Below are positions 706 through 52,384 of a DNA stretch of 64,000 nt, piece by piece. Below the pieces are notes generated by a model. That model saw only the letters and a program-made list of their open reading frames with translations, did not search any database and was not told the origin of the DNA. Source of the DNA: a virus; IMG/VR virus record IMGVR_UViG_3300002460_000027; one strand, 5' to 3'. Within the stretch, counting starts at the first letter, position 1. Each line of letters opens with the position of its first letter. The translations under genes were made by a program, and so were the position numbers.

Positions 706-971
706 CTGGATACGCTGAACCAACATGGAGAAAGTCCCCATACTCTTATAGTATTCCGTACGTTCTCACACTCTGCTTGTGTGTCAAATGGACCCACAAC
801 CGTAGCTGGCGCTCCCCCACCAAACAGCCCTCCTGAGTTGCCAGGGATAAGAAACCACCAAGCCAAGACGATAATTAGTCTGAGCCTCATCACAGCCACA
901 CATGCCCCCCATCCGGCAGCACCTGCCCCCACGTTGCCGGGCAGGTGAACGGATGCCCCCAAAACGTCCAC
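702..971 (-). CDS. small hypothetical membrane/secreted protein (likely start near MRLRLIIVLAWW)
   Basis: Hydrophobic N-terminal stretch; fills the gap between polymerase and dehydratase. Confidence 0.5.
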   Translation of the reverse strand: MDVLGASVHLPGNVGAGAAGWGACVAVMRLRLIIVLAWWFLIPGNSGGLFGGGAPATVVGPFDTQAECENVRNTIRVWGLSPCWFSVSR

Positions 972-1903: not shown

Positions 1904-2048
1904 GGACGGTCTGTTGGGTACAGTTCCAGCATGTAGCAGCGGTTTCTGGCTTGATGAGTACCCACCCATATGGCCACGAGTTCCACTCCCGGCCGAGCGG
2001 TATCACGTGCCCACAAGCATACACGTTCCCGGCCAGGGTCACCGCCAT
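1872..2048 (-). CDS. 58-aa Cys/His micro-protein (CGHV...CWNC), divergent family member lying between the two polymerase ORFs
   Basis: MAVTLAGNVYACGHVIPLGREWNSWPYGWVLIKPETAATCWNCTQQTVHAQAPPAPQR; ATG overlaps the upstream TGA. Confidence 0.6.
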   Translation of the reverse strand: MAVTLAGNVYACGHVIPLGREWNSWPYGWVLIKPETAATCWNCTQQTVHAQAPPAPQR

Positions 2049-3412
2049 CGTTCTACCCCATACCCCTGCGCGGCCACCTGCGGACCAGAGCGGAGGTTCA
2101 ACGGCCAGCCGGCCGCTGCTTGAGCTTCCAGTGCAATCGTATGCTGGGCATCCCGCAAAGAGAGCACAGCCCGTTTGGCTCGTAGGGCATCCACTCGTAT
2201 GCCCACCCTGCGCGCCATAGCAACGATACGCAGAAGCGGCAGTAGCGCGTGTCTGTAGACCCACTCGCTGGCTGGGTCTCGGGCCAGCTCGTCTCGGAGT
2301 CCCTGCCAGACGTCCCACGTTCCGAGCGCGTCCCCTGCCGCGTACTCGACCGGGTTGGCTTGGGAGAGGTGCTTCCAGCGGTTCGTACGGGCATAGAGGC
2401 TCCCCAGGAAGTCCAGGTCGTGAGCCAGTTCCGAATAGAGCGCGTGATGGGCATACATGGTGTCCTCGTGTGTCACCGGAACGGTGCCGAAGAACTCCTC
2501 TAGGCGGTCAATGTCCGCGTCGGCTTGGTGGAAGATAACGTGCGGCATCTGGGCTGAGGTGCCAAGCATCCTTGGCAGAGGCTCGTCCGCGTCCACTACC
2601 CAGACTTTCTCCCCGTCCGACGCAGACCATCTGACGAGGTGCCGTTCCTGCCCCTGCTCCCAGAACTCCGTGTCAAACGCAAACTCAGCCGGCCACGCCG
2701 CCATCGCCCGCCGGATCGGCGGCATCGGCTGGGGCCAGCGCCCCGCCAGCAGCTCGCCGAGCTTCTGCCAGTCCCGAAGCGCGGCTGGCTTGAGCCACGG
2801 GGCCTCGTAGATCGCGGCTGGGTGAAGGGTAGCGTACACCACCATCCCGCCTCCCGGCGGCGTCCATACGTGCGAGGCCGTCTGACGCTTGAAGGGGGAC
2901 CACGGTAGCACCCACCCGCGCCACCCGGCTATCTTTCGTGAGATGCCGTAGGGGGGCGGGTCGCCGCCGTCTTCCCCTGTGGTGGCCCAGAGTGCGTAAC
3001 CGCCGAGGGCGACGACAACCATACACGCCGCCGGGGGTCGAAAGTATGCCTGCTGGCAGTGCTGGATCGCGTTTCTGACCTCCACTCGTTCCAATGTAGG
3101 TAGCTGGTTAGAGCCACCAACGCGGCATCGGACGACATTGGCGAGGGAAACGTCTTCTCGCACCAAGCCAGCAAGCGGGAGGTACGTTCGTCCCAGGTCA
3201 TAGCCGGAGTCTCCGATGAAGGGGGCGGGCTCGCCCGGCTCCCACTTCTTGAGCCGGCCCGCCCGGCCGACGAGCCGCTCCCCACGTTCTTCGTGCTCAC
3301 CGGGGGCCTGCCCTAAGACCAAGACGGGGACGGGCCGGTACTCGTCCGGCACCATCCACCGCCCTTTGGTCTCGAAGGGGCAGCCGCGACATCCGGGGCC
3401 CTTTGGGATCAC
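2039..3412 (-). CDS. family-4 uracil-DNA-glycosylase-like domain fused to PolA 3'-5' exonuclease (N-terminal half of DNA polymerase)
   Basis: CRGCP, VLGQAPG, PFIGDSG, NVVRCR, ALG, TLHPAA (UDG4); FDTE, FHQADAD, EDTM, YAAGDA (Exo I-III); PLNLRSGPQV (thumb start). GTG start at 3412 inferred. Confidence 0.85.
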   Translation of the reverse strand: MIPKGPGCRGCPFETKGRWMVPDEYRPVPVLVLGQAPGEHEERGERLVGRAGRLKKWEPGEPAPFIGDSGYDLGRTYLPLAGLVREDVSLANVVRCRVGGSNQLPTLERVEVRNAIQHCQQAYFRPPAACMVVVALGGYALWATTGEDGGDPPPYGISRKIAGWRGWVLPWSPFKRQTASHVWTPPGGGMVVYATLHPAAIYEAPWLKPAALRDWQKLGELLAGRWPQPMPPIRRAMAAWPAEFAFDTEFWEQGQERHLVRWSASDGEKVWVVDADEPLPRMLGTSAQMPHVIFHQADADIDRLEEFFGTVPVTHEDTMYAHHALYSELAHDLDFLGSLYARTNRWKHLSQANPVEYAAGDALGTWDVWQGLRDELARDPASEWVYRHALLPLLRIVAMARRVGIRVDALRAKRAVLSLRDAQHTIALEAQAAAGWPLNLRSGPQVAAQGYGVERWR

Positions 3413-3417
3413 CCAAC

Positions 3418-3909
3418 CTAGTCCCGCACAGGACTCAGCGCCACGACGAAGTTGCTGGGCTCTGGGAACCGCTCGTTGCCTTCCAGCCGCCGGATACGGA
3501 GCCGGACGGGGTAGTCCCGCACGTACCCAGCCACCTCGGCCAGGGTGTCCGGGTCGCGGCCGTTCGCCGTCTTGAAGGCGGTCACGGCCTGTGTCCACCG
3601 CTGGGAACTGGCATCCGGCCGCCCGGAGTCGTTCGTCACCCGGTCGGGGGACATCGTGAGCCCGATCCCACCCTTCTCGCCCGTGACCTCGTGCTGCACC
3701 TGCGCGAAGAAGCGGTACTCAATCCGGCCGCGCTCGCCCCCGCCGTTGTCCTGCACCTTCGTCCGGTCGGAGACTCGCGCCGTCAGCGTCAGGGCGGGCA
3801 GCGTCCGATACGTCCCCTCGGTGAGAAGCAGCGCAGTCTGCGTCTCCTTGTCCTGCTCGGCCTGCTCCTGCGTGTACGCTCGTGCCAACAGTTCGTCCAT
3901 GCCTTCCAT
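3418..3909 (-). CDS. hypothetical protein, possible ssDNA-binding protein by position
   Basis: Follows the Sak4-like and exonuclease genes; no diagnostic motif. Confidence 0.45.
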   Translation of the reverse strand: MEGMDELLARAYTQEQAEQDKETQTALLLTEGTYRTLPALTLTARVSDRTKVQDNGGGERGRIEYRFFAQVQHEVTGEKGGIGLTMSPDRVTNDSGRPDASSQRWTQAVTAFKTANGRDPDTLAEVAGYVRDYPVRLRIRRLEGNERFPEPSNFVVALSPVRD

Positions 3910-13871: not shown

Positions 13872-14087
13872 GTGCCTAGCACTCAGGACCAGCAATTAGC
13901 TGTGTGGCTCCATCTCACGTGGCCGTGGTTATGCCGGGTGGGACTTCACGAGTGGGAGATCAGGGTCCGGTTCGTGAACCGCCGCATGGTAGAGGACAGG
14001 GTATACCACTGTGCAGCCTGTGACAAGGTGAAACCCTACCGTGCCCACTGTAGGGGGGAAAATGAGCGCACCAGAAGAAACGGCTGA
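13872..14087 (+). CDS. small Cys/His hypothetical protein
   Basis: CRVGLHEW...HCAACD. Confidence 0.45.
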   Translation: MPSTQDQQLAVWLHLTWPWLCRVGLHEWEIRVRFVNRRMVEDRVYHCAACDKVKPYRAHCRGENERTRRNG

Positions 14088-14239
14088 AGACGTTTTACTC
14101 CGAGTACGTAAAATCCTCAAAGTCCCAGAGGCTGCATCTATTACTGAGTGGGCAGAGATGCTTATAGAACTCTTTGACCCAATTCTTCTCTATCACATGC
14201 GGCAAGACGTGCAGCGACATCCGGTGCCATCTGTTTGGT

Positions 14240-14956
14240 ATGCCAACCATCCTGACCCGCGCTGAAGCCGCCTCGCTCCAGGCTACCCTCGACCGGATCA
14301 CCCCGGCTGAGGCGCTGGCCCTCGCGCAGGCCCAGTGTGCAGCCGACGGCTGGTTCTGGCTTCAGTACGTGCAGACCAGGGACGAGGCCGACCCCGAGGT
14401 GCCCGTGAAGATGTTTCCGCGCCACTTGAGCTACATCCGGGGGCTCTGGGACGTGCTGACGAACAAGCCCCGGGTCGTCGTCGCCAAGTCCCGGCAGATG
14501 ATGGTCTCGTGGGAGGTCGTGGCCTTCTGCGTCTGGTGGGCCCGGTTCAAGCCCAACCAGGTCATCCTCTGGCAGACGAAAGCCTGGGAGGACGCCGTGC
14601 GGATGGTGGCCATGCCGGAAGGCGGGTTCGAGGGGCGGGCCCAGTTCATCGAGTCCCACCTGCCGGACTGGCTGCGGCTGCCGGCCAAGATCTCGGAGGG
14701 CCGCATCCAGTACCCGAACGGCAGCATGATCCAGGCCCTCGCCGGGGGCGCAGACAAGGTACGCGGGCTGGTGCCGTCCGTGTTCGTCGGGGACGAGTTT
14801 GCACACCAGGAGGAGCAGGACGGGGTGTACACCGCCGTCGCCCCCCTGATGCAGAAGGGGGCGAAGGTCGTCTTCGTGAGCACGCCTAACGGAGCTTCCA
14901 ACGTGTTCGCCACGCTCTACCACGGCCGGCCGGTGGGGACAGACCCGACGATATGA
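14240..14956 (+). CDS. terL: terminase large subunit, ATPase domain
   Basis: VVAKSRQMMVSW, VRG, VFVGDEFAH Walker B, VFVSTPNG coupling motif. Confidence 0.85.
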   Translation: MPTILTRAEAASLQATLDRITPAEALALAQAQCAADGWFWLQYVQTRDEADPEVPVKMFPRHLSYIRGLWDVLTNKPRVVVAKSRQMMVSWEVVAFCVWWARFKPNQVILWQTKAWEDAVRMVAMPEGGFEGRAQFIESHLPDWLRLPAKISEGRIQYPNGSMIQALAGGADKVRGLVPSVFVGDEFAHQEEQDGVYTAVAPLMQKGAKVVFVSTPNGASNVFATLYHGRPVGTDPTI

Positions 14957-15846
14957 ACGGCTTTACCGTCTCCGAGAACGCGATGGGGTTCACCGCCGTC
15001 CGGCTGCACTACAGCGCCGACCCCGCCAAGTCTCAGGACAACGAGGACGGAGCCAAGTGGCTGGAGAACGCCCGTCGGTTGTTCCCCGACGAGAACCGCT
15101 GGAACCAGGAGATGGAGCTGTCCTTCTGGATCGCGGCAGGCCAGCGGGTCTACCCCGAGTTCCGGGAGACGCTTCACTGTGACGCCCTGGAACACCGAGC
15201 CCGGAAGGTCATCTATCGGGCATGGGACTTCGGGTGGCATGCTCCTGCGTGTCTCGTTGCTCAGATCGACACCAAGGACCGCTTGCTGGTCCTGCGCGAG
15301 GTAGTGGGGCATGAGCAAACCACCCGCCAGTTCGCCGAGTCTGTGCTGGAACGCTGCGCCGGGTGGTATCCCCAGCACGCGGCAGGCTTCCAGGACTTCT
15401 GTGACCCGGCCGGGCAGCAGCGGAACTCAACCGCTGAGGCCAGCGAGATCCGAGACGTGGAGATCCTGAACACCCTCGGCATCTACCCACGCTGGGACTA
15501 CGGCTGGTCTCGCAAAGACGGCCGGAGCCTCGTACATCAACTGCTGGTCCAGCGGATAGACGGGACGCCCTCGATGCTCATGGACGGGTCGAAGTCGCCC
15601 ATCTTGCTCCAAGGCTTCCTCGGCAAGTACGTCTACCCGCCCCGCAAGGACGGCCGGGCGCATGATGAGCCGGACGAAGGCAACCACCCGTGGGCAGACG
15701 CGCAGGCGTGCTTGCGCTACCTCGCCACGGGGCTCTACTCGGCACTCGGGTTGCGGCGAGAGTTCGCCCGCCCCGTGCCCGAGCGAGAATTGGACTATCA
15801 CGGCTATGGCAGCCCCCTACAGGGGAAGAAAGCGGTGTCTCGATGA
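14953..15846 (+). CDS. terL: terminase large subunit, RNase H-fold nuclease domain
   Basis: RLHYSADP, RAWDFGWHAPA, FCDPAG, HPWADAQACLRY; ATGA overlap with the ATPase ORF. Confidence 0.85.
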   Translation: MNGFTVSENAMGFTAVRLHYSADPAKSQDNEDGAKWLENARRLFPDENRWNQEMELSFWIAAGQRVYPEFRETLHCDALEHRARKVIYRAWDFGWHAPACLVAQIDTKDRLLVLREVVGHEQTTRQFAESVLERCAGWYPQHAAGFQDFCDPAGQQRNSTAEASEIRDVEILNTLGIYPRWDYGWSRKDGRSLVHQLLVQRIDGTPSMLMDGSKSPILLQGFLGKYVYPPRKDGRAHDEPDEGNHPWADAQACLRYLATGLYSALGLRREFARPVPERELDYHGYGSPLQGKKAVSR

Positions 15847-16247
15847 AAGCGTTTCTCGGTCTCGCCCTTGTGCTCGCTCTCGTACTGGCTCCCTACGAGG
15901 TCGTGTTTGTCGCCCCCAACGCCGCCGTCTCGTTCCCGTACAAGTCGCTGAGTGACGCGGCCAAGGATGCGGACGGGGTTGCTCCTGGGACCTGTGCCGG
16001 AGAATACGGTGCGCTCATGTCCGTCGAGATCCCCATCCGGTACTTCGTCCTCTACATCGGAGACGGCAAGTTGCTGGTGGGGGAGTGGGCCAACGCCGAA
16101 ACGTTCAACAAGCGCCCGCCCGCGTTCCTCTGGATTGGCACCATAGACAAGGACGGCGGGATCGTCATGCAGAGCCGGGAGCCCTTTGACCCGGCCAAAC
16201 ACGGCGACGGCCCGTGCCGGCTCCTCTACCCGGAACGCTACATCTGA
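15843..16247 (+). CDS. hypothetical protein with signal peptide/TM
   Basis: MKAFLGLALVLALVLA N-terminus; ATGA coupling. Confidence 0.6.
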   Translation: MKAFLGLALVLALVLAPYEVVFVAPNAAVSFPYKSLSDAAKDADGVAPGTCAGEYGALMSVEIPIRYFVLYIGDGKLLVGEWANAETFNKRPPAFLWIGTIDKDGGIVMQSREPFDPAKHGDGPCRLLYPERYI

Positions 16248-16663
16248 CCGTGACGCTCCGTGACCAACTCAAGCGGGATGAGGGGAAGTCGGCGGAGATG
16301 TATCTGGACTCGCGTGGGTTCCTCACTATCGGCTACGGCCATCTCCTGCGTGGCGGGCCTCCTCTGTCTGATGCTGCAATGGAGCAGATACTGGGGGACG
16401 ACCTCCTGGCCACAACCCAGGCGCTCAGGGACCGGCTCCCGTGGGTCGTCACGCTCTCGTCGGCCCGGGAAGGGGCGCTCGTGAACATGGCGTTCAACAT
16501 GGGGGTCGGGGGCGTGGCCGGGTTCAAGAAGATGCTGGCCGCGCTCCAAGCCCAGGAATGGGACACGGCGGCCCGAGAGTTGCTCGACTCCAAGTACGCG
16601 ACCCAGGTTGGGGAACGGGCCACGCGACTGGCCCAGCAACTCATTACGGACACGTGGGTCTAG
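16214..16663 (+). CDS. T4-type lysozyme (GH24) endolysin
   Basis: LKRDEG...YLDSRGFLTIGYGH (E-D-T triad), LVNMAFNMG, SKYATQVGERATRL. Confidence 0.9.
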   Translation: MPAPLPGTLHLTVTLRDQLKRDEGKSAEMYLDSRGFLTIGYGHLLRGGPPLSDAAMEQILGDDLLATTQALRDRLPWVVTLSSAREGALVNMAFNMGVGGVAGFKKMLAALQAQEWDTAARELLDSKYATQVGERATRLAQQLITDTWV

Positions 16664-16672
16664 GGGGACACC

Positions 16673-16960
16673 ATGAAGGTGGGGCGGCACTACATCGGCA
16701 AGATGTGTCAGATCCGGTGGTTCGACCCGATCAACGGTAACCATGAGTGTGACAAGTCTGAACTCCCGAAAGGGAAGGTAGCCCTCGGGGTTTGGAGGTC
16801 AAACGGGGTGATTGACGACCTGACGGATGGGGTGGTGCGGCTGATTCAGGCCGATACGGGCTTGTCTCCAGTCGGCATCCTTCAAGAAGCCGACGCCTGT
16901 TGGATTCCAGAAGACCTGATTGACGCGATCATCAGTTACGTGCCAGAGGTGTCGCCGTGA
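16673..16960 (+). CDS. hypothetical protein
   Basis: SD GGGG upstream; coupled to the next ORF. Confidence 0.6.
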   Translation: MKVGRHYIGKMCQIRWFDPINGNHECDKSELPKGKVALGVWRSNGVIDDLTDGVVRLIQADTGLSPVGILQEADACWIPEDLIDAIISYVPEVSP

Positions 16961-17274
16961 CTTTTGGAGTGTTCCCGTGGGGGGCCCCGGCACCAGTTCC
17001 CACACGCCCGACGTTCGTAGCCGACTGGGTACCGACAGAGACCCCAAAAGTGACCCGAGACTACTGCCCCAAGTGCGAGCCCAAGACCGACCCGACGGTC
17101 GAGTGCTTGCAGGTGTCATGGTGTGACACCCACCGGCCGTCTGTGAAGGGCAAAGACGACGGGAAACTCAACGACATCCTGAACGGGGCCGCACTCCACT
17201 ATTCGTTCAACGAGGCCGGCGGGGCTGACAACCGGGCCGCGTGCGCGTTCTTCCACCGCCGAGAGGATACGTGA
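16957..17274 (+). CDS. hypothetical Cys-containing protein
   Basis: GTGA coupling; CPKC...WC. Confidence 0.55.
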   Translation: MTFGVFPWGAPAPVPTRPTFVADWVPTETPKVTRDYCPKCEPKTDPTVECLQVSWCDTHRPSVKGKDDGKLNDILNGAALHYSFNEAGGADNRAACAFFHRREDT

Positions 17275-17513
17275 TGACCAAGAAGCGCGACATCTCTCTT
17301 GGTCTGCTCATCGCCCTGCGGGTGTTTGCCCCCATCGTGTTCGGAGCTGCCCTCTGGCTCTACCTCCCCCATCAGGAGGCAACCGTCGTCATCGCCACAA
17401 GCCGAGTCCAGACCCCAGCCAAGCCTCGGGCCACGCTCAACGACGTCCGGCGCGACTGGGGTATCGAGGGCCGTTTGGACTGCCGTGTCATCCCACAAGG
17501 AGGTCTCCCGTGA
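17274..17513 (+). CDS. membrane protein
   Basis: Hydrophobic N-half. Confidence 0.5.
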   Translation: MTKKRDISLGLLIALRVFAPIVFGAALWLYLPHQEATVVIATSRVQTPAKPRATLNDVRRDWGIEGRLDCRVIPQGGLP

Positions 17514-17644
17514 GCACGATCAAAGGTCTGATTGCCAAGTACCCTGTCATCTCGATGCTGGCCGTCGCCGCCGCGACCTATTACGGAGGCCCGAAAGGGG
17601 CTGACATGCTGGCCGCGATTGCCAAGGCGCTGGGGTTGGTCTAG
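17510..17644 (+). CDS. 44-aa membrane peptide, holin candidate
   Basis: MSTIKGLIAKYPVISMLAVAAATYYGGPKGADMLAAIAKALGLV; AGGAGG SD. Confidence 0.5.
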   Translation: MSTIKGLIAKYPVISMLAVAAATYYGGPKGADMLAAIAKALGLV

Positions 17645-17655
17645 CGAGGTGTTCC

Positions 17656-17895
17656 ATGTCGCTCAGGAAGCGGATCTGGAGCGTACTGTACAACCTGGAT
17701 CGCACCGTGGCGAGCCTGTTCGGCGCACCCCCGCAGGCCACCGTGTCGGCTGAGGCCGCGCGGGCAAACCAGCGTGGAGCGTGGTGGGGCCGAACGTTGT
17801 GCTGGCTGCTGGACAAGATCGACCCTGGGCATTGTGATGATGCCGACGCGCACGCTGACAAACTGGAGTCTGCCGACAATGGAAAGTTGCTCTAG
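17656..17895 (+). CDS. conserved phage hypothetical protein
   Basis: LYNLDRTVASLFG...TVSAEA...LCWLLDKIDPGHC pattern. Confidence 0.65.
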   Translation: MSLRKRIWSVLYNLDRTVASLFGAPPQATVSAEAARANQRGAWWGRTLCWLLDKIDPGHCDDADAHADKLESADNGKLL

Positions 17896-18064
17896 ATGAC
17901 CTGGTTCTTCATCCTCCTGTTCCCCGTGCTGCTGGGCGGCCCCGTCTCCGTTAAGGTCGAAGCTACCAGTGAAGACCACTGTACCCGCGTGCGGAAGCTC
18001 CTCGTGCAGCAACTGGACGACCACCGAAGCAACGCCACCGTGTCGGCGTGTGAGAGGATTGTGA

Positions 18065-20389
18065 ATGGAAGCTGAAAGCAAGCCGGGCCAGGACAAGCCG
18101 GACATCCCGGTTGAGGGGCCGGCCCCAGACCCCAACACTGAGTTGATTCAGAGCCTGACCCCTCGGCTCGATCCAGATGACGAGCGGGACCTTCGCAACC
18201 TCGTCCTCACCGAATATCACGCAGCCCTCTCGGATCGCTCCGAGTGGGAGTCCCGGCTGGTGGAGTGGGAAGACCAGTACTACAACCGCGTAGGGGACAA
18301 GACCTTCCCGTGGCCCGGGGCCAGCAACTTCCACGTGCCGCTCACGATGATGGGGGTGGAAACCTACAAACCCAGGCTCGTGGACTCCATCCTCGGCCAG
18401 CAGCCGCCGATCATCGTGGTGCCGACGACCGCTGCCGGGGAAGACCGGCGTGTGACCGTCGAGACCGTGCTGAACTGGCAGGTGCAGTCCAAGCTCAAGC
18501 TGGAGCCGGTCATCACCCAGTCCGCCCATCTCTTTCTCCAGCCCGGGCTCGCTGTCGCCAAGACGTACTGGAAGGTGGAACGCACCCGCCGCAAGATGGT
18601 GCGTGAGTTCCCGCCCGGCACCGCCATCGAAGCCATTTTCGAGGCGCTGTTTGGTGCGGACAAGCCCCAAGACCTGAAAACGACTGGAGACCTTAAGTGG
18701 CGGGGCGAGATTCGCACGTCTCCGCAGGGCGGCCCTCCGCTCGAAGCCATCATCGAGATGCGGGTGCTGGAGGACGGCATCCAAGTCCTCGTGGACCGCG
18801 AAGAGGTGACCGAAGGTCCGCAGGTAGACCTGATTGACCCCACTGACCTCATCGCGCCCGCGAGGGGCGGGCACGAGGTCAAGGACTTGCCATGGATTAA
18901 GCACCGGCTCTGGATGACCGAGGACGCGTTGCGCTTGAAGGTGCTCCAGGGTCGGTTCTACGAGGACTCGGTGCAGACCCTCGTGACGTCGGGCCCTGTG
19001 GGGGATGAGGAAACCGACTCTGGCGGCTACAAAGCCTCCCAAGATCAGGCGGAGGGGCTTGTCAGTGACGGGTCGAGCGATGCCCGGGCTGGGGAGTGGC
19101 CCATCCTGGAAGACTACCGTCGCTACGACATTGACGATGATGGGCTGGAGGAGGAGATCATCGTCTGGGTGTCCGAAGACCTACCGGACAAGATCCTCGG
19201 CTGGGACTACCTCGACAACGTGTACGCGCACGGTCGCCGGCCCCTTCGCGTGTCCCGGTTCTTCCCCATCCCGTTCCGGTTCTACGGGCTGTCGTTTGCC
19301 GAGATGGTCAAGGGCATCCAGGACGAGATCAACGCCATCCACAACCAGCGCGTGGACTCAGGCACCCTCGCCAACCTGCCGTTCGGGTTCAAGCGAGCGT
19401 CCTCCACGATCCCGCCCATCCAGCAGCGTATCCGCCCCGGCGAGTTCCTGGATGTGGACAACCCGCAGCAGGACGTGATGATCCCGAAGTTCAACTTCTC
19501 CCCGGCGTTCGGGTCACAGGAAGAGGCCACGCTGCATCAGTATTTCGAGCGCCTCACAGGCTTGAGCGACCTCTCGATGGGCCGGATGCCCAACCGGGTC
19601 GGGGCCACCCGCACGGCCAAGGGCACCCAGACGCTCCTCAGCGAGGGCGGGCTGCGCTTTAAGACGGCGATGCAGGCGTTCCAGCAGTTTTGGGTCGGCA
19701 TCTTCGAGGACATTCTGGCGCTGGACCAGGAGTACCTGCCCCCGAGGCAGGAGTTTCGGGTCACCGGGCGTCGGCCGGCTGTCATCCGGGTGAAGGACCG
19801 CACGGAGATCCGGGGGGCCTACGACCTTCGGCTGGCGGCCACCTCCGACACGATGAACCGGGAGCAGATGCGGCAGGACGCTTCCATCATCATCCAGGCC
19901 CTGATGAACCCGGCCGCCGTCCAAGTCGGGCTGGTTGGCAAGAAGGGCATCCGCCGGGCCTACCAGGACCTCCTGAAAGCCTACGGGAAGGACCCGGACT
20001 TCTATCTGGAGGACGACGCCCCCGTGCGCTCCCCCATCGAGGAGTTGATGCTGTTCACGACTGGCCAGTACATCGCTCCGGTCATGGGGGAGAACTTCCA
20101 GGCCCACATCATGGCCCACCAGGAGGCGATGCGGGACCCCTTGGTGCCGCCCGAAGCCAAACAGCTCCTCCGACGCCATCTTCAGGAGACCCACCAGCTC
20201 ATGCAGGCCGCGCAGATGGCTCAGATGCTCCAGGGACCGTCTGGGAGGGCGCCGATGGGCCCACAGGCCACAAACGCCGCCACGGGGGCAGCTCCACAGG
20301 GCGCTGGAGCCGGCCCAGGGGGCCCCGCGAGTCCTGCTGGGGCCGGAATGCCGTCACCAATGGCCCAAATGGGCCCACAAAGGGGATAA
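18065..20389 (+). CDS. portal protein (podovirus P22/SU10-like)
   Basis: 774 aa; WPGASNFHVPL, FYGLSFAEMVKGIQDEINAIHNQRVD, TGLSD..MG, Gln/Pro/Gly-rich tail; between terminase and capsid. Confidence 0.85.
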   Translation: MEAESKPGQDKPDIPVEGPAPDPNTELIQSLTPRLDPDDERDLRNLVLTEYHAALSDRSEWESRLVEWEDQYYNRVGDKTFPWPGASNFHVPLTMMGVETYKPRLVDSILGQQPPIIVVPTTAAGEDRRVTVETVLNWQVQSKLKLEPVITQSAHLFLQPGLAVAKTYWKVERTRRKMVREFPPGTAIEAIFEALFGADKPQDLKTTGDLKWRGEIRTSPQGGPPLEAIIEMRVLEDGIQVLVDREEVTEGPQVDLIDPTDLIAPARGGHEVKDLPWIKHRLWMTEDALRLKVLQGRFYEDSVQTLVTSGPVGDEETDSGGYKASQDQAEGLVSDGSSDARAGEWPILEDYRRYDIDDDGLEEEIIVWVSEDLPDKILGWDYLDNVYAHGRRPLRVSRFFPIPFRFYGLSFAEMVKGIQDEINAIHNQRVDSGTLANLPFGFKRASSTIPPIQQRIRPGEFLDVDNPQQDVMIPKFNFSPAFGSQEEATLHQYFERLTGLSDLSMGRMPNRVGATRTAKGTQTLLSEGGLRFKTAMQAFQQFWVGIFEDILALDQEYLPPRQEFRVTGRRPAVIRVKDRTEIRGAYDLRLAATSDTMNREQMRQDASIIIQALMNPAAVQVGLVGKKGIRRAYQDLLKAYGKDPDFYLEDDAPVRSPIEELMLFTTGQYIAPVMGENFQAHIMAHQEAMRDPLVPPEAKQLLRRHLQETHQLMQAAQMAQMLQGPSGRAPMGPQATNAATGAAPQGAGAGPGGPASPAGAGMPSPMAQMGPQRG

Positions 20390-23480: not shown

Positions 23481-24395
23481 ATGGCTACCCTACGGACGAC
23501 GCTTCCCTCGCTGTACCTCAGCCGCCTGGCGTTTCTCGAAGATGTCCTGTTCGACGAGATGCCCATCGAGGCTGGGGTGTTTCAGCGCATCCTCAAGGTG
23601 CGCGACATGGGCAACAAGCCCTTCGTCAAGACCACGACCGTCGCCTCGTTCGGCTCCGTGCCGATCAAGGCGGAAGGCGCGGCCGTCACGTATGACGACC
23701 TCGCCAGCGGCTACGATGTGACGTATACGGCCGACACCTACGAGCTGGCGTTCCGGGCCTCCAAGGAAGCCCTGGACGACGAGCAAGAGGAAGTCGTGTC
23801 GGACGCCGCTCGGGCCCTCGGGCAGAGCATGAATTACACGTACGACGTGGATCATGCCAACCTGTTCAACAACGGCTTTACGACCACGACGGGCTCTCCA
23901 GACGGCGTGGTACTCTTCAGCACGGTCCATCCGCTGGTCGGGGGCGGCACCAACGCCAACCGGCCGGCCACCGACGGGGACCTCTCCGTCGCCCAGCTTC
24001 GCACGGCCCTGAACGACATCGCCAACACCAAGGACGATTCGGGCAAGATCGTGCATTGGCGGGCCAAGGTGCTCCTGGTGTCGTACAACCAGAAGTGGCT
24101 GGCATCGGAACTGCTCGGCAGCTCACTCAGGGCGGACACGGCGGACAACGCCATCAACGCCTTCAAGGACGACGGCCTCGTGGTCGTCTCTACTCCGTAC
24201 CTCACCGACACGAACGCGTTCTTCCTGCTGTCCGAACCCTCAAGGCACAACGTCCGCACGTACTGGCGTGAAAAGCCCAACGTGCTCCACGATTGGGACT
24301 TCGAGACGTCCAGCATGAAGGTCAAGATTCGGGCCCGGTGGCGGCGCGGTTGGAGCGACTATCGCGGGGTCTACGGCACCAGCGGCTCCTCGTAG
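23481..24395 (+). CDS. major capsid protein (HK97 fold, Mu gpT-like)
   Basis: FGSVPIKAEGAAVTYDD, YELAFRASKEALDD, FFLL, DFETSSMKVKIRARW..GWSDYRGVYG. Confidence 0.85.
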   Translation: MATLRTTLPSLYLSRLAFLEDVLFDEMPIEAGVFQRILKVRDMGNKPFVKTTTVASFGSVPIKAEGAAVTYDDLASGYDVTYTADTYELAFRASKEALDDEQEEVVSDAARALGQSMNYTYDVDHANLFNNGFTTTTGSPDGVVLFSTVHPLVGGGTNANRPATDGDLSVAQLRTALNDIANTKDDSGKIVHWRAKVLLVSYNQKWLASELLGSSLRADTADNAINAFKDDGLVVVSTPYLTDTNAFFLLSEPSRHNVRTYWREKPNVLHDWDFETSSMKVKIRARWRRGWSDYRGVYGTSGSS

Positions 24396-24476: not shown

Positions 24477-24677
24477 ATGAGTCTCGCTGGGATTGGCCCG
24501 CTCGTTGAAGTGGTGCGGAAGTCTATCTTGCCTGGGCCCCAGGGCCCGGCAGGAGCCCCAGGGCCGTCAGGACCTCCTGGCCCCCGGGGACAGATAGGCC
24601 CGCCAACCGACTCAGCCCGCCTTGACGCGCTCGAAGCTCGGATTGCCGCGCTCGAAGCGCGTGTTGTCAGCACCTAG
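24477..24677 (+). CDS. 66-aa collagen-like (Gly-X-Y) + coiled-coil protein
   Basis: GPQGPAGAPGPSGPPGPRGQIGP then LDALEARIAALEARV. Confidence 0.7.
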   Translation: MSLAGIGPLVEVVRKSILPGPQGPAGAPGPSGPPGPRGQIGPPTDSARLDALEARIAALEARVVST

Positions 24678-24723: not shown

Positions 24724-25230
24724 ATGCCTCTCGGATTTGGTGGTGCCGTCTTCACGTCGTCTTCCGGTGGTGACATCGGAGGCGGCAAGTATTACACCCG
24801 GCTGCGTGGCCCGGTGTTGGTCGGAGCCCCGTCCAACTCGGACGCCCCGGGCGGCTCGTACTCAGGGAAGAACTTCCCCCCACACATCGTCAACGTCTCC
24901 ACGATGCGTGGGGACATGCTGGTGTCTGTCGTGTCCTCGTTTGCCCAGGCGATCACGCTGACCAGTTCGGCCCTGAACGTCAGTACGGGGACTCCTACCG
25001 GGCTCGTGTACATCTCGATGAGCACAGGGGCGGGCGGGATGATTGCGGCGGCATCCACCGCCAATGCTCCGACTGGTCTTCCCGGTGGGTTCAACGGAGC
25101 CGCTCTCGTATGGGATGCGGCGGCTCAGACCCTCGCGCTCTACGACCCACTCTCCAGCGCCTGGACGTACCCGCACACCACGTCAAGCGGTGCGGGAACC
25201 GTCATCACCTGGACCGCCTCTAGCTCCTAA
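24724..25230 (+). CDS. Ser/Thr/Gly-rich putative virion protein
   Basis: Composition and position. Confidence 0.6.
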   Translation: MPLGFGGAVFTSSSGGDIGGGKYYTRLRGPVLVGAPSNSDAPGGSYSGKNFPPHIVNVSTMRGDMLVSVVSSFAQAITLTSSALNVSTGTPTGLVYISMSTGAGGMIAAASTANAPTGLPGGFNGAALVWDAAAQTLALYDPLSSAWTYPHTTSSGAGTVITWTASSS

Positions 25231-25250
25231 CCAGACCGAAAGGGGACGCG

Positions 25251-26216
25251 ATGGCAGACGAACAGAAGCCGAAACTGTGGCAGGTCACGCCGGTCTGCGC
25301 CGACGTGGAGATTCGAGACCGGAGCGGGGCGCAGGTGGTCGTTACCCCCCGGCGCAAGAAGGTGGCCTTGGTCGGGTTCGCCACGAACACGCTGCATCAG
25401 GTGCCGTGGGACGACCCGACGTTCGAGGTGTGGGGGATGAACCAGGGCCACATGAACTTCCCCCGCCGGGCTGACCGCTGGTTCGAGATGCATAGCCCGG
25501 AGTTCACGGCCGACATGCGGGACCCGAACTACATCCCGTGGCTGTCGGCGCTCGACATCCCGGTGTACATGATCGAGGTGCGGGACGAGTACCCGACCTC
25601 TTGCCGGTATCCCATCGAGGATGCCATCCGGTACGCGGGCCGGGACTACTTCACCAGCACGGTCGCGTTCATGCTGGCCCTGGCCGCGATGGAAGACTTC
25701 GAGGAGATCCACCTGTACGGGATCAACCTCGCCATCGCTGACGAATACTTCTACGAGAAGCCCTGCGCGGAGTGGTGGCTGGGGTTCCTCGCCGGCCGTG
25801 GCATCAAGATCTTCGTGCCGCACGCCTCCTCGCTGCTCAAACAGTACCTGCGCTACGGGTATTTCGTGGACGCCCGGCCGAACGCGAACTTGCGGACGCT
25901 GCTTCACTCCCGGGTCGCGTCCTACCGACATCAGTGCGAGCAGGACACGGCGAACGTGAACTACTGGAACGGCCGGGCCCAGTTGTGTGTTGAGATCGAC
26001 AAGGAACGGGATGACAAAGACTTGGCCGAGTACCTCCAGCCCAAGATGACCGATGCCGAGGGCAAGCGGGCGGAGGCGACCAATAACTTCCACATCCACC
26101 GGGGCCAGTGGGCGGAGGCCGAGAGCCTCGTGCAGATTGCGGAAGGGATCGAGCACGGGGCCGATCTCGTGCTGATGCCGAACCCGACACCTCCGGCGGC
26201 CACGTCGTCCACATGA
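25251..26216 (+). CDS. CstII (GT42)/Maf-like putative CMP-nonulosonate glycosyltransferase
   Basis: KKVALVG, EVWGMNQ, FTSTVAFMLALA, EEIHLYGINL, IKIFVPHASSLL follow the CstII motif order as recalled from memory; not searched. Confidence 0.55.
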   Translation: MADEQKPKLWQVTPVCADVEIRDRSGAQVVVTPRRKKVALVGFATNTLHQVPWDDPTFEVWGMNQGHMNFPRRADRWFEMHSPEFTADMRDPNYIPWLSALDIPVYMIEVRDEYPTSCRYPIEDAIRYAGRDYFTSTVAFMLALAAMEDFEEIHLYGINLAIADEYFYEKPCAEWWLGFLAGRGIKIFVPHASSLLKQYLRYGYFVDARPNANLRTLLHSRVASYRHQCEQDTANVNYWNGRAQLCVEIDKERDDKDLAEYLQPKMTDAEGKRAEATNNFHIHRGQWAEAESLVQIAEGIEHGADLVLMPNPTPPAATSST

Positions 26217-26395
26217 CCGAAGACCAAGCGGTCGAGCAGTACGAAACGGTAGACGAGGAGGTCAACACCATCCACACCTGCTGGTGGTGCAGCCGCCCGG
26301 ACATGATCCTGCGCGACCCGCGCCAGCTCCCCAACGGCTCCGTCTTCTCGTACTGTCCCGAATGCGGCGGGACGTACATCGTCCGCACGCTTTGA
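26213..26395 (+). CDS. small zinc-ribbon protein
   Basis: CWWC...CPECG; ATGA coupling. Confidence 0.6.
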   Translation: MTEDQAVEQYETVDEEVNTIHTCWWCSRPDMILRDPRQLPNGSVFSYCPECGGTYIVRTL

Positions 26396-45047: not shown

Positions 45048-45197
45048 TCACGCACTTTCATCCCCCGCCTCCTCGATGGGCCGGACCGCGTTCGGCGGCG
45101 CGCCGTGTCCTCGCAAGTCCTCATCGGTCATTGTGCAGTAGGGCCACGTACACGCGAGCAACGTTCGGTGGCACGCGCAGGTTTCAGACTCCGGCAT
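45048..45197 (-). CDS. 49-aa CxCx6CxWPxC peptide
   Basis: Hand translation MPESETCACHRTLLACTWPYCTMTDED...; overlaps the aminotransferase stop. Confidence 0.45.
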   Translation of the reverse strand: MPESETCACHRTLLACTWPYCTMTDEDLRGHGAPPNAVRPIEEAGDESA

Positions 45198-46242
45198 TGA
45201 TCGCCTCCGCCAAGTTGTCCACGTCAGCCTCCGTGTGCGCCGCCATGATGTTGAAGCCCGCCGGGTGGATCAAGTGCCCCCGCGCGGCCGCCGCCTGTAC
45301 GGTGGGGATGTTGGCGTCTGAGGTGGTGTAGTCCCCCACCCCCATGAACCGGGGATGCACCGGCCAGCCCGTGAGGGCTGGGCAGGCTTTCATCAGCCGC
45401 GTTCCCAGCGCCCACATCTTCTCACAGACCCGCTCCGTCCGGTAGACCCGCATCACCTCTTCCGCCGCCGCCAGTCCCGCGCACTCCCCTCCAAATGTGC
45501 TGGACACGTCTACCGCGTACTTCATCAACCGACGCGGCCCCACCACGCACGCGATGGGCCAGCCGTTCCCGAGCGCCTTCCCGTAGCAGGCGAGGTCGGG
45601 CACGAGCTTGTAGTATTCACACGCCCCCCCGATGGCCCACCGGAACCCCGTGACCATCTCGTCCATGATGAGCAGTGCTCCCACGTCCCGGCACCGAGAC
45701 TGGATGCCAAACAAGTAGTCCTCGGGTGGGTGAGAGTCCCGCATCGGCTCAAGCAGGACCGCCGCGACCCGCCCATCAAGATGCCGCCGCCACTCGGGCG
45801 ACCCCCACGGGATGTCGATGAGGTCTGGGCCGGGCAGGTGGGCCTCGTGCCAGCCGTGGTAGCCAATGGAAAGGACCCGCCGCCGGCCGGTCGCGCGACG
45901 GGCGATCAGCATGGCGGCGACCGTCGCCTCCGAGCCGGTCTTGACCCAGCGCACCTGCTCGGGCCAGTGGAGGAGCTGGCAGAGGTCGTCAGCGACCTTT
46001 TCCTCCAGCCGCGTCGGAAGGGGAAACGTCACTCCGAGGTCTATCTGCTCCAGGACCCTATGGTCCACCGCCCCATAGCCCAACCCCACCGCTCCCAGCC
46101 CAGCGATCCAGTCTGTCCATGAGTTCTCTTCGTTTCCGACTATAGTGCCCATCGCCCAGGTGAGCGTCTTGGGGAACGGGGCCCCGCCAAACACATGGTG
46201 GGCTTTGGAGCGGGTTTGGGAGCCGCCTGGGGTGCGCTCCAT
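45184..46242 (-). CDS. class III PLP aminotransferase (GSA-aminomutase-like, nonulosonate/sps-cluster type)
   Basis: PGGSQTRSK, DWIAGLGAVGLGY, VKTGSEAT, GYHGWH, MDEMVTGFR, YGKALGNG (PLP Lys); TAATG start. Confidence 0.85.
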   Translation of the reverse strand: MERTPGGSQTRSKAHHVFGGAPFPKTLTWAMGTIVGNEENSWTDWIAGLGAVGLGYGAVDHRVLEQIDLGVTFPLPTRLEEKVADDLCQLLHWPEQVRWVKTGSEATVAAMLIARRATGRRRVLSIGYHGWHEAHLPGPDLIDIPWGSPEWRRHLDGRVAAVLLEPMRDSHPPEDYLFGIQSRCRDVGALLIMDEMVTGFRWAIGGACEYYKLVPDLACYGKALGNGWPIACVVGPRRLMKYAVDVSSTFGGECAGLAAAEEVMRVYRTERVCEKMWALGTRLMKACPALTGWPVHPRFMGVGDYTTSDANIPTVQAAAARGHLIHPAGFNIMAAHTEADVDNLAEAINAGV

Positions 46243-46511
46243 TACGGTGTCCAGCAGATTTCCTCCACGCGCTGACGGAGCCATTTGACTTCGTCAGTGA
46301 TTGGAATCGGTGCCAGAGATGGCTGCTGAAGCCCCATCGAAGCTATATTCCAGTTAGTCGTTGTACACGTTTGAGGTCCCTGTGTCATACTCATTCCGTA
46401 AAACTGACCCATGCTCATACCATTTAGCCCGCCTAGACTACTGATGGTCTGCTGAAGGCCCACTTGCGATCCATCAAACTCAACAAACTGTCCTGGCTGG
46501 AAGGAAGGCAT
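46242..46511 (-). CDS. hypothetical protein
   Basis: Coupled at both ends; lower GC. Confidence 0.5.
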   Translation of the reverse strand: MPSFQPGQFVEFDGSQVGLQQTISSLGGLNGMSMGQFYGMSMTQGPQTCTTTNWNIASMGLQQPSLAPIPITDEVKWLRQRVEEICWTP

Positions 46512-46512
46512 C

Positions 46513-46932
46513 CTACCGCCCCTTCTTCGAAATCGCCATGTTCACGTTTGGCAGCCGAGCCAGGATATCGGCCATCATTTCCTTGAGGTAGGCCACTTCC
46601 TTCTCGAAGCGGTCCTGCTGGAACTTCATCTGTCCCTCAAACCGCAACTTATCGGCGGCCAGGTTCTCCTGCCGTACCGTCAACGACGTTTCATCTTTTG
46701 CCTGTTTGATCTCAAACTCCTGCCGCTTCTTCTCCAGCCCGATCATGTGCCGGAGTTCCCGCTCCTCCCGTTCGTGTGACTCCGTCTTCTTGGACTTCTC
46801 AATCTCCAGCGTGACGATCTGCTTCTTGAGCGCCACCACTTCGTCAGTCAGTGGCGATACCTTGTCCATGCCACCAAGCTTCCGAAGCGAGTCGATAAAC
46901 GCCTTTTCTTCTTTGCTGGCAATCAGAATCAT
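46513..46932 (-). CDS. coiled-coil hypothetical protein
   Basis: Glu/Lys-rich; SD upstream. Confidence 0.65.
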   Translation of the reverse strand: MILIASKEEKAFIDSLRKLGGMDKVSPLTDEVVALKKQIVTLEIEKSKKTESHEREERELRHMIGLEKKRQEFEIKQAKDETSLTVRQENLAADKLRFEGQMKFQQDRFEKEVAYLKEMMADILARLPNVNMAISKKGR

Positions 46933-47654
46933 GTGGTCCCCCTTTCAAGAGAATTATACACAGGTCCCCCCACCTTGGCCATACGGATGTCATAGGCGCG
47001 GCACTCCACCAACCCGCCCCGGTTCGTCGCCTCGTCTACTTGGTGGAGATCCCACCGGGGCGTCCGGCCCGGACCCGCAATGGACCCCGCCGAGTTCTGG
47101 TGGTGTGGTGTTCCGCGTCGGCACCACTCACACGCCGCCATCACCGCCCGCACGAAGTCTAGCCCCGTCTGGTCGTCCACCGACCAGCGGTAGGTGCCCG
47201 GGAGGTGGTAGGGCTCTCTCAGCGCCCGGTTGGCTCGCATCCAGACCGTCACGTGTTCCCGCTTGATGCCGGTCTCGGCCTCGTCTGCCTCCATCAGCGT
47301 CTCCCGGTCGAAGACCTCTGTGTCCAGCCCGTCCATGCTGAGACAGGTTCCGTAGTAGCCGTGCCGCCATCCAGCCAAGACCTGCCGTCCGACCTCTGCG
47401 TCCCAGAGGGGGCAGTCCGCTGTCACCCGGATGAACCGAGTCACGTCCGGGTGCCGGTTAGCCACCCGCACGAACCGGGTCAGCACGTCCCACTCGGGCT
47501 CCAGTTCGGGCCATGCGACGACAAGCGGGTATCCGAGCTGGGCCACCCGCTTCACGACATGAGCCAGCATTGGCTCACCGTCGATGTCCTTCATCACCTT
47601 TCCCGGGAGCCGCGTCCCCCCGTGGCGTGCTTGGATGACGGCTAGTGTTTGCAT
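46929..47654 (-). CDS. SpsF/PseF-type acylneuraminate cytidylyltransferase
   Basis: VIQARHGGTRLPGKV, DVLTRF, IRVTADCPL, GLDTEVF, REHVT, RWSVDD. Confidence 0.85.
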   Translation of the reverse strand: MQTLAVIQARHGGTRLPGKVMKDIDGEPMLAHVVKRVAQLGYPLVVAWPELEPEWDVLTRFVRVANRHPDVTRFIRVTADCPLWDAEVGRQVLAGWRHGYYGTCLSMDGLDTEVFDRETLMEADEAETGIKREHVTVWMRANRALREPYHLPGTYRWSVDDQTGLDFVRAVMAACEWCRRGTPHHQNSAGSIAGPGRTPRWDLHQVDEATNRGGLVECRAYDIRMAKVGGPVYNSLERGTT

Positions 47655-47969: not shown

Positions 47970-48365
47970 TCACAACCCCAACTCGAACAGCACGGGGCTG
48001 AACCCCGCCGCCTGAAACGCCTTCTGACTTCGCACGTTCTCGGGAGCAATCTCCGCGAAGATACGAGTGTAGCCAAGCCGCCGGGCTTCCTTAGCCAGCA
48101 GCATGAGGGCCTGTTCCCCGAAGCCCAAGCCCCGAGACGTGGGCGCGATCACGATGGACACCATCCCCTCCCAACTGAGCCGAAGCGTGCCGATCTGGTT
48201 CTCGTTGGCCTCACACACCCAGCGGTGGTCAGACGTCTTGGACCACCAGCGGACGTGTTCCTCCTCCGTGAGTAGCGGGCGACGGCTGGCCCGCCGAGCC
48301 GAGGGCTCGTTCCTGAGCAGGAGGAAGTAGTCTCGGTCGGCGTCGGTGGCGATGCGGAGGTTCAT
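47970..48365 (-). CDS. GNAT N-acetyltransferase, PseH-like
   Basis: LLLRNEP, EHVRWW, IGTLRL, VSIVIAPTSRGLGFG, ENVRSQKAFQAAGF. Confidence 0.8.
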   Translation of the reverse strand: MNLRIATDADRDYFLLLRNEPSARRASRRPLLTEEEHVRWWSKTSDHRWVCEANENQIGTLRLSWEGMVSIVIAPTSRGLGFGEQALMLLAKEARRLGYTRIFAEIAPENVRSQKAFQAAGFSPVLFELGL

Positions 48366-49138
48366 CCAGTCACCCGGTATGGCATCATGGCCGCCTCTAC
48401 CGGCTGGGGCCGCTTGACCCCATCCCCCATCATGGTCTCAGCCAGCCGCACGAGCCGCACGTAGCGTATCAAGTCCTTGGGTCGGAGTGCCGTCGCGTAG
48501 TCTGGGTTCGCCGGGTCAGTGTCGTCCAGCCGGAAGTGGACCTCCAGGATGCTTGCTCCAGCCGCGACCGCCAATGCTCCCGTCAGCACGTTAGCCGTGT
48601 GGTCGGAGTAGCCGTCGAAGCCCAGAGCGATAGCCCGGAGGTTCGCCTGTCCTATCGGGCATGGATAGGCGGAGACGCAATGGAGGTAGGATACCTCTGA
48701 CACGTCTCCCCACATGTACTGCTGGCCCCCGCCCGCCATCCCCGTGCTGATGATGAGCGGCTTGTTATACGTCCTGTATGCCTCCACGAACGCGGTGTCC
48801 CCCGCCTCGAAACTCGCCACCTTGAACCGCTTGACGAGCGGGGCCACGACCTCTATGTCCTCGGGGAGGTACACCGTACACATGAACTCGATCCCCACCG
48901 CGTCACAGTGGGCCTTGAGAAGCGGGAGCTGCTTCTTGTGGACCCGGTAGCGTTCGTAGACCTTCCGGTACGCTGGGGCGTGCCGGCGCTTGGCCACCTT
49001 GCGCGGGCTGGACATGAACTGGAACTTGCAGGCGTCCGCCCCCGCTCGGGCTGCCGCTTCAATAAGCAGGAAGGCTTGCTCCAGGTACCCATCGTGGCAA
49101 GAACCCGCCTCAGCGATGACAAAGGTGTGCAGGCTCAT
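48362..49138 (-). CDS. neuB: NeuB/PseI-family nonulosonic acid synthase (no SAF domain)
   Basis: FVIAEAGSCHDG, GADACKFQ, FKVASFE, KPLIISTGMA, LHCVSAYP, GYSDHT, GASILEVHF. Confidence 0.9.
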   Translation of the reverse strand: MSLHTFVIAEAGSCHDGYLEQAFLLIEAAARAGADACKFQFMSSPRKVAKRRHAPAYRKVYERYRVHKKQLPLLKAHCDAVGIEFMCTVYLPEDIEVVAPLVKRFKVASFEAGDTAFVEAYRTYNKPLIISTGMAGGGQQYMWGDVSEVSYLHCVSAYPCPIGQANLRAIALGFDGYSDHTANVLTGALAVAAGASILEVHFRLDDTDPANPDYATALRPKDLIRYVRLVRLAETMMGDGVKRPQPVEAAMMPYRVTG

Positions 49139-49845
49139 ACCACCCCCGGCTTCTGTGTGTCCCACATGCCACACTTCTGGCATTGGAGCCGCTGGGCCCG
49201 CCCGCCCGCCTTCGTGATGGTGAACCCGCGCCGCTGGAACGCCGTCCCGCCGCACGCCCGGCACGACCCCCCCAGCCCCACCCGTGGGTGCTGGCGGACG
49301 AACGCCCGGAGCTTGAGATAGCACCACTCCAGGATGTCCACGTCCAGCCGGCAATGGTCGATGACGTACCGCATAGACTTGGGGTCCCCGCGCTGGGCCC
49401 GTCGCCACGTGTCAGCCCGCACGGGGGTCTTGGAGTAGGGGCAACCCAGCGACTCACTCACGGCTTGGAGTCGGTTACTGTGCAGCTTGAGGTTGCCACG
49501 CGCCGTGTAGTAGAGGTCCACGTGCTCGTGAGACAGCGGGGGGAGCGGGGAGAGCCCGCACATCAACATCCGCGTGTTGAGGAACTTGCGGTCAAACTCT
49601 TTACCATAGTACGTGACAATGATGTCCGCTCGGTTGGTCAGCAGGTCGTTCACCCGCACGAGGAGGTGGGCGTCTGGCTCCTCTTCTTTGGGTGGCTCCG
49701 GGAAGTCCCGGAGACTCAGGACTCGTGTTTGCTTGTCCCCGAGGTACTTGTAACCGAAGCACAGGGTATGCCCGAACGAGGCTTCGAGATCCGAACTCTC
49801 GATGTCGAAGAGCATGACACGAACCGGGTCGAGAAGGTTTCTCAA
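49135..49845 (-). CDS. DnaQ/PolB-type 3'-5' exonuclease (RNase_H_2-like) with C-terminal zinc ribbon
   Basis: LFDIES, VTYYGKEFD, HVDLY, HCRLDV, CRACG...QCQKCG. Confidence 0.85.
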   Translation of the reverse strand: MRNLLDPVRVMLFDIESSDLEASFGHTLCFGYKYLGDKQTRVLSLRDFPEPPKEEEPDAHLLVRVNDLLTNRADIIVTYYGKEFDRKFLNTRMLMCGLSPLPPLSHEHVDLYYTARGNLKLHSNRLQAVSESLGCPYSKTPVRADTWRRAQRGDPKSMRYVIDHCRLDVDILEWCYLKLRAFVRQHPRVGLGGSCRACGGTAFQRRGFTITKAGGRAQRLQCQKCGMWDTQKPGVV

Positions 49846-52200: not shown

Positions 52201-52384
52201 CTGGATACGCTGAACCAACATGGAGAAAGTCCCCATACTCTTATAGTATTCCGTACGTTCTCACACTCTGCTTGTGTGTCAAATGGACCCACAACCGTAG
52301 CTGGCGCTCCCCCACCAAACAGCCCTCCTGAGTTGCCAGGGATAAGAAACCACCAAGCCAAGACGATAATTAGTCTGAGCCTCA

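Follow-up and report, generated by a model that had tools for sequence, protein, structure and literature searches.

The window analysed here is the whole 64,000-nucleotide stretch of DNA of the IMG/VR virus record IMGVR_UViG_3300002460_000027, and its gene at positions 25,251 to 26,216 on the + strand encodes a soluble protein of 321 amino acids. We propose, with a probability of roughly 0.6, that this protein is a soluble cytoplasmic Maf-like O-glycosyltransferase, which would move a cytidine monophosphate (CMP)-activated nonulosonate made by the phage onto a protein of the phage head. The Maf-like transferase is preferred because it is the simplest account covering the predicted fold of the protein, the conservation of its family, the linkage of that family to the nonulosonate synthase NeuB and its linkage to capsid genes. 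A broader claim, to which we give about even odds, is that the thousands of clusters in the family form a phage superfamily of capsid-linked transferases adding phage-made, CMP-activated sialic-acid-like sugars to a head decoration protein, at its Ser/Thr-rich C-terminal region.

The open reading frame (ORF) at 25,251 to 26,216 was confirmed as a real gene. It begins with ATG, the stop codon of the preceding gene (25,228 to 25,230) is followed by 20 bases before this start, and a Shine-Dalgarno-like AAGGGG, read from the sequence at 25,240 to 25,245 (+), lies 5 bases before the ATG. It is not a chance frame, since the protein has many homologues that share many invariant polar residues. No membrane segment was found in the protein, where no hydrophobic 19-residue window exceeded 1.0. 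The window is a wrapped phage genome of 51,495 bp, circular or terminally redundant, with 12,505 of 12,505 overlapping positions identical at that offset, and has a G+C content of 63%. Metagenomes of groundwater and soil, from about 15 studies, contain sequences nearly identical to it, and no RNA runs containing the window sequence were found.

The fold of the protein was predicted with an AlphaFold2 model built on a family alignment of 52 sequences (mean predicted local distance difference test score, pLDDT, of 86). The model consists of an N-terminal beta-hairpin (residues ~18 to 32), a Rossmann-like domain of the sialyltransferase/Maf/MptE fold (~35 to 205), a helical hairpin (~205 to 305) and a Pro/Thr/Ser tail. 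When the model was compared with the PDB by Foldseek, CstII ranked first (1ro8/1ro7, E 2e-4 to 5e-4, probability 1.0), followed by ST8SiaIII, ST6GalNAc2, Cst-I and a Pasteurella sialyltransferase, and then by the MptE kinase, thiamin pyrophosphokinase and SteA. With VIA-align, Z was 10.3 over 161 residues for the Maf structure 5mu5, 10.0 to 10.1 over 161 to 167 residues for Cst-I and 9.0 to 9.1 for CstII; matches of coiled coils to the C-terminal hairpin dominated the wide VIA-align search, and a second-look search was more informative. Superposition on the single Rossmann-like (modified GT-A) domain of CstII and Cst-I (Z 9.0 to 10.1) aligned 150 to 167 residues with a root-mean-square deviation of 3.6 to 4.2. 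Identity in the structural alignments was highest for CstII, at 18 to 21%, against 9% for the MptE kinase. The neighbours in AlphaFold DB, BFVD and ESM Atlas were DUF115/MptE-like, GT29, CST-I and WaaZ Kdo-transferase clusters, and the structural neighbours include phage proteins that fuse a sialyltransferase-fold domain to an S-adenosylmethionine (SAM) methyltransferase.

An earlier note on this DNA had named the strings KKVALVG, FEVWGMNQ, FTSTVAFMLALA, EDFEEIHLYGINL and IKIFVPHASSLL in the protein, had read them in the same motif order as in CstII, and had proposed a sialyltransferase or Maf fold. All five strings were found in the translation. The motif order agrees with the structural alignment, in which model residues 35/36 to 197 are colinear with CstII residues 1/2 to 220, and the best Foldseek matches and the VIA-align scores of Maf and Cst-I bear out the fold. 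Faint traces of the same families were seen when 39 diverse relatives were searched against Pfam. PF01973 appeared below threshold in 3 of them (best E 0.027) and PF06002 (CST-I) in 2 (best E 0.0021), both being among the three most recurrent Pfam matches of this set. In one member of the family a PF01973 match (E 0.0044) was placed on the DYFTS...YGIDL stretch.

One search returned at least 198 homologues at E<=1e-3, all labelled hypothetical, and an exhaustive profile search gave 4,721 clusters at 50% identity (E<=1e-3), 3,461 of which had E<=1e-10. Among cellular genomes (185,579 species searched) there were only 4 matches, all on small contigs of metagenome-assembled genomes, and the 50,697 deposited phage genomes held a single one, in a Microcystis phage. 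The family is very large, almost confined to phages and at present without annotation.

Across members of 27 to 61% identity, residues H81, P104, Y133, G157, E165, E174, Y202 and G285 are invariant, and G42, N64, F134, T135, D159 (Asn in the clade of the window) and Y166 are conserved in at least 90% of these members. This pattern looks like that of an enzyme. Mutagenesis of Maf proteins has identified a catalytic Ser together with an Asp or Asn, namely S334/D357 in CbMaf from Clostridium and S356/N379 in GkMaf from Geobacillus (bioRxiv 10.1101/2020.06.03.131540). In the window protein S136 likewise stands 23 residues from N159 (a D in most relatives), and from this spacing we argue that they may correspond to the catalytic Ser and Asp/Asn of Maf; GkMaf has Asn at the second position, as does the window clade. 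Three members of the family (P0162, P0218 and P0261; 506 to 545 amino acids) carry an intein with a homing-endonuclease-like insert, and the intein site is identical in all three, right after E165-Y166 of the G-I-D-L-x4-E-Y motif (DEY/C...HN/S). Inteins typically occupy functionally critical motifs.

The family was found to travel with NeuB. In the sample of the 18 longest IMG/VR records with the family, and with NeuB counted above the Pfam cut-off, 11 records had NeuB, as did all seven (7/7) of those that are at least 90% complete, mostly with a cassette like that of the window; the association with neuB raised in the earlier note is in agreement with these counts. The seven records represent about seven phage lineages, with family members 30 to 53% identical and genomes of 46 to 91 kb. 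The cassette order in most records is the same as in the window: PseB-like protein, NeuB, GNAT, CMP-transferase and class III aminotransferase. The family gene never lies within the sugar cassette and is 10 to 24 kb away from it. A canonical PF01973 protein that could act as an alternative transferase was found in none of the tested family-bearing records.

The position of the gene beside capsid genes is also shared by the family. About 73 loci offer 1.3 kb or more of upstream sequence and were taken as informative; in 69 of them (~95%) a capsid gene ends 0.44 to 2.1 kb upstream of the family gene, and three capsid types are found there, namely the window type, the HK97 type (PF05065) and the lambda-E type. 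The window-type capsid protein was detected at E<=1e-5 in only 6 of 81 loci, so the family sits on unrelated backbones; capsid genes homologous to that of the window come before the family gene in L002-L005, L056 and L063. In five annotated backbones the order of genes is capsid, a protein of 200 to 247 amino acids, sometimes a protein of 80 amino acids, the family gene, head-tail adaptor and tail terminator. Over 53 distinct loci the protein between capsid and family gene has a median Ser plus Thr content of 23%, compared with 14% in capsid proteins and 10% in the enzyme, and many of these proteins have a Ser/Thr-rich C-terminus, for example STSTSTST, ATSTST, TTGCST or FSSS. PHROGs gave no function for them. 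The capsid-gene linkage gives strong indirect support to virion proteins as the acceptor. That the acceptor would be specifically the Ser/Thr-rich protein encoded after the capsid gene is a tentative proposal, and we regard it as somewhat doubtful.

In the window itself, the nonulosonate cluster that the earlier note had placed at 45 to 52 kb was borne out by Pfam matches. All of its genes are on the - strand and all are kept in the related phage cassettes. A PseB-like UDP-sugar 4,6-dehydratase (51,238 to 52,236; Polysacc_synt_2, E 2e-72) would catalyze the first step of the donor pathway. It is accompanied by a NeuB-family nonulosonate synthase of ~258 amino acids (48,362 to 49,138), a GNAT N-acetyltransferase with a PseH-like role (47,970 to 48,365), a predicted CMP-sugar synthetase (46,929 to 47,654; CTP_transf_3, E 6e-14), by which the donor would be activated, and, also from the sugar pathway, a class III aminotransferase (45,184 to 46,284; E 5e-27). 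The Pfam NeuB match (E 2e-41) covers residues 115 to 332 of a 348-residue ORF (48,362 to 49,408, -), which looks over-extended because its relatives align only from residue ~92 on and Pfam covers the last ~255 residues. The 5' part of this long ORF overlaps an RNase_H_2/exonuclease-like ORF at 49,135 to 49,845 (-), and the window NeuB-type synthase is without a SAF domain. NeuB resembling that of the window is very rare in deposited phages, with 3 of 50,697 records found by tblastn.

The gene is one of the head genes, and the portal gene (18,065 to 20,389) lies upstream of the capsid gene. The major capsid protein gene lies at 23,481 to 24,395 (+), 0.86 kb upstream, and was recognised by matches to PHROG major head protein families (E 2e-14 to 2e-11), in accordance with the earlier placement of our gene three ORFs after it. 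Directly after the capsid gene, ORF 24,477 to 24,677 (+) encodes a 66-residue mini-protein with a collagen-like G-X-Y repeat and a short coiled coil, which matched collagen-like tail-fibre segments in PHROGs and is possibly a head fibre or decoration trimer. Next comes the gene for a Ser/Thr-rich protein of 168 amino acids (24,724 to 25,230, +; 25% Ser plus Thr), directly upstream of gene 25,251 to 26,216; the family of this protein has a nearly invariant C-terminus, W-[ST]-A-S-S-S. No promoter-like or + strand terminator-like site was found between the capsid gene and gene 25,251 to 26,216. Downstream, a zinc-ribbon-like ORF of 60 amino acids (CWWC...CPEC; 26,213 to 26,395, +), in the same frame as ORF 26,108 to 26,395, has an ATG that overlaps the stop codon of our gene (ATGA) and may be translationally coupled to it. 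In the other backbones examined, the family gene is not followed by this ORF.

Some further observations were made on the gene surroundings in this and related phages. Upstream of the portal gene, at 14,000 to 18,065 (+), no scanned ORF matches a Pfam terminase family, and no large terminase gene was recognised in the ORFs that the scan covered; the same region contains a phage lysozyme gene (16,214 to 16,663). A phage of 66 kb whose capsid protein is of the lambda-E type (L085, positions 1-3718, from the IMG/VR record of L058) has a different sugar gene set just upstream of its family-bearing head genes, with a UDP-GlcNAc 2-epimerase-like gene, a B12/radical-SAM enzyme and a FemAB-like acyltransferase among its members. 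Genes for GTP cyclohydrolase I and a phosphoribosyltransferase adjoin the terminase genes in two related phage types (L084, 1-620; L087, 1-520). These genes may belong to the 7-deazaguanine DNA-modification pathway.

Among known systems, one of the closest is Maf (motility-associated factor; PF01973, MptE-like/Maf_flag10), a cytoplasmic, soluble protein O-glycosyltransferase that transfers CMP-activated pseudaminic acid (CMP-Pse), legionaminic acid (CMP-Leg), N-acetylneuraminic acid (CMP-Neu5Ac) or the octulosonic acid Kdo (CMP-Kdo) onto Ser/Thr of a self-assembling protein before its assembly. Besides the fold of its central domain and the 23-residue spacing of a conserved Ser and Asp/Asn, the phage protein resembles Maf in being encoded alongside a NeuB-type pathway. 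Maf itself is a large multidomain protein from flagellar glycosylation islands, and its acceptor is flagellin. Unlike Maf, the phage protein is half the size and is without the Maf flanking domains, having a beta-hairpin and a helical hairpin instead, and the family is linked to phage capsid genes rather than flagellin genes and is nearly absent from cellular genomes. The Cst-I and Cst-II enzymes of Campylobacter jejuni (GT42, PF06002; 1ro7, 1ro8, 2p2v and 2p56) provide the best Foldseek matches, the highest structural identity and the same motif order. GT42 enzymes sialylate lipo-oligosaccharide, not proteins. In CstII, His188 is the catalytic base and two Tyr after a G-I-D-F motif bind phosphate; in the phage family G157-I-[D/N]159 and Y166 are conserved, and the invariant His, H81, stands elsewhere in the sequence. 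More generally, the CMP-ulosonate-dependent transferases (GT29, GT42, Maf and WaaZ) take their sugar from a CMP-activated nonulosonic or octulosonic acid; here a CMP-transferase and NeuB are present in the same genome, as they are in all of the complete related genomes (7/7).

Glycosylation of phage virions is known for mycobacteriophages. Freeman et al. are said to have proposed in 2023 that mycobacteriophage capsid proteins are glycosylated by phage-encoded glycosyltransferases. To our knowledge, those enzymes are of the conventional GT-A/GT-B types, use host nucleotide-hexoses and have no phage-encoded sugar pathway. The system described here differs from them in the sialyltransferase-like fold of the enzyme and in that the phage carries its own genes for nonulosonate synthesis and CMP activation. 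We found no report of nonulosonate glycosylation of tailed-phage virions, or of this family, in open-access papers and preprints.

Several results weigh against a Maf-like transferase, and part of them favour other explanations. None of Pfam, NCBIfam, PHROGs and the PDB sequences gave a significant match to the protein, either alone or as the 52-sequence profile, and the Pfam search with the single protein gave no match even at E<=1; with no significant PF01973 match the family fails the Pfam model of Maf, and it does not reach the gathering score of PF06002 and is not a sequence member of GT42. The CstII lid and the position of His188 have no obvious counterpart, the invariant His of the family being H81, elsewhere in the sequence. 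The putative catalytic residues were deduced from spacing and conservation, not from residue-level superposition. The window showed no recognisable PseG-like hydrolase, and the structure model of the candidate acceptor (24,724 to 25,230) had a pLDDT of 52, too poor for a fold search. Moreover, the top VIA-align match was the MptE 6-hydroxymethylpterin pyrophosphokinase 8sd5 (Z 10.4), and SteA (9.9) and thiamin pyrophosphokinase (9.7) tied with the sialyltransferases. Therefore the fold class is clear, yet the fold alone cannot tell a transferase from a pyrophosphokinase. If the core fold shared with these kinases (8sd5 and 3lm8) reflected a shared function, the protein would be no glycosyltransferase but an MptE/thiamin-pyrophosphokinase-like or SteA-like nucleotide binder acting in head assembly as a kinase or regulator, with a coincidental or indirect link to NeuB, and GTP cyclohydrolase I is present elsewhere on some related phage contigs. 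We consider this improbable. The identity to these kinases in the structural alignments is 9 to 14%, with the MptE kinase well below CstII, and the near-invariant D159 is Asn in the window clade, which would be more in keeping with a metal-independent transferase than with a Mg-dependent kinase. The 40 window ORFs scanned included no pterin or thiamin genes; NeuB and the CMP-synthetase co-occur with the gene instead, and this reading leaves the NeuB cassette in all seven near-complete records unexplained.

The linkage to NeuB also has its limits. The complete records are few and their sugar cassette is homologous, so common descent may account for some of the co-occurrence. In the reverse direction, 36 further NeuB-bearing viral records were checked and only 5 had the family, including 3 of the 6 with a completeness of at least 90%, and the other phages presumably use other transferases; these further records were found by an alignment-based search, while a single-protein search of viral contigs with the window NeuB had given no close relatives. 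The sole homologue in a cultured phage, that of the temperate Microcystis phage Mvi-Yong1342-1 (L001, PP496355.1, 19,905 to 20,708), is 33% identical and lies just upstream of terS in a genome with no NeuB. The label of this homologue as a type 11 methyltransferase was rejected, as no methyltransferase domain is detectable in it; the label was probably transferred, because related phage clusters fuse the domain to a SAM methyltransferase. The Microcystis homologue is not adjacent to a capsid gene, which would suit a genuine CMP-nonulosonate transferase whose acceptor belongs to the host, such as lipopolysaccharide, capsule, S-layer, flagellin or pilin, and which remodels the cell surface in infection, for instance so that other phages are shut out. 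All of the characterised relatives, namely CstI/II, WaaZ and Maf, modify bacterial surface components, and phage neuA/B/C clusters have been read as altering the host surface in published metagenomic work (bioRxiv 10.1101/655167). A host acceptor nevertheless seems unlikely to us, since it leaves unexplained the site of the gene in the late head operon after the capsid gene, which holds for ~95% of informative loci and three capsid types. The enzyme is without a membrane anchor, the gene is always 10 to 24 kb from the sugar genes, and a Ser/Thr-rich phage protein accompanies it. The slot between capsid and head-tail adaptor genes is in turn the usual place of decoration and connector genes, and the protein has a long coiled-coil-like hairpin, as might be expected if it served the head as a structural or assembly protein (decoration, chaperone or scaffold-like) that keeps an enzyme-like fold without catalysis. 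We judge this very improbable. The invariant polar residues (H81, E165, E174, D/N159, S136 and N64) fall in motifs that line the nucleotide-sugar site of the relatives, inteins are inserted at one such motif, and a purely structural role leaves the link to the sugar pathway unexplained.

If the protein is a Maf-like transferase, the opposite-strand genes, expressed early or in the middle of infection, would make a CMP-activated nonulosonic acid of the 5,7-diamino type, of the pseudaminic/legionaminic kind, and the family enzyme would be expressed together with the head genes. The donor would be bound in the Rossmann-like domain through G42, N64-Q65, Y133-F-T-S136, G157-x-[D/N]159 and E165-Y166. 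A head protein would then receive the sugar on its Ser/Thr hydroxyls in a reaction without metal, for which H81 or E165/E174 would supply the base. The acceptor would most likely be the Ser/Thr-rich protein 24,724 to 25,230, or else the capsid protein itself, and the transfer would take place in the cytoplasm, before or during head assembly. The C-terminal helical hairpin might dock the enzyme on the acceptor or oligomerise the enzyme. Capsids made in this way would bear a coat of acidic sugar.

If this proposal is true, O-glycosylation with sialic-acid-like sugars would extend beyond bacterial flagella and S-layers to the capsids of tailed phages, where it would be widespread, and among the tailed phages of soil, groundwater and aquatic habitats many would have capsids covered by an acidic sugar. 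The neuB clusters of phages would then be virion-building genes rather than auxiliary genes directed at the host surface. This would raise the testable questions of whether such a sugar coat affects the stability and aggregation of particles, their adsorption to soil or mucus, or their recognition by hosts and grazers. With the enzyme, the donor pathway and a candidate acceptor encoded in ~10 kb, a ready experimental system would be at hand, and the small soluble enzymes of the family could serve as tools for attaching nonulosonic acids to proteins.

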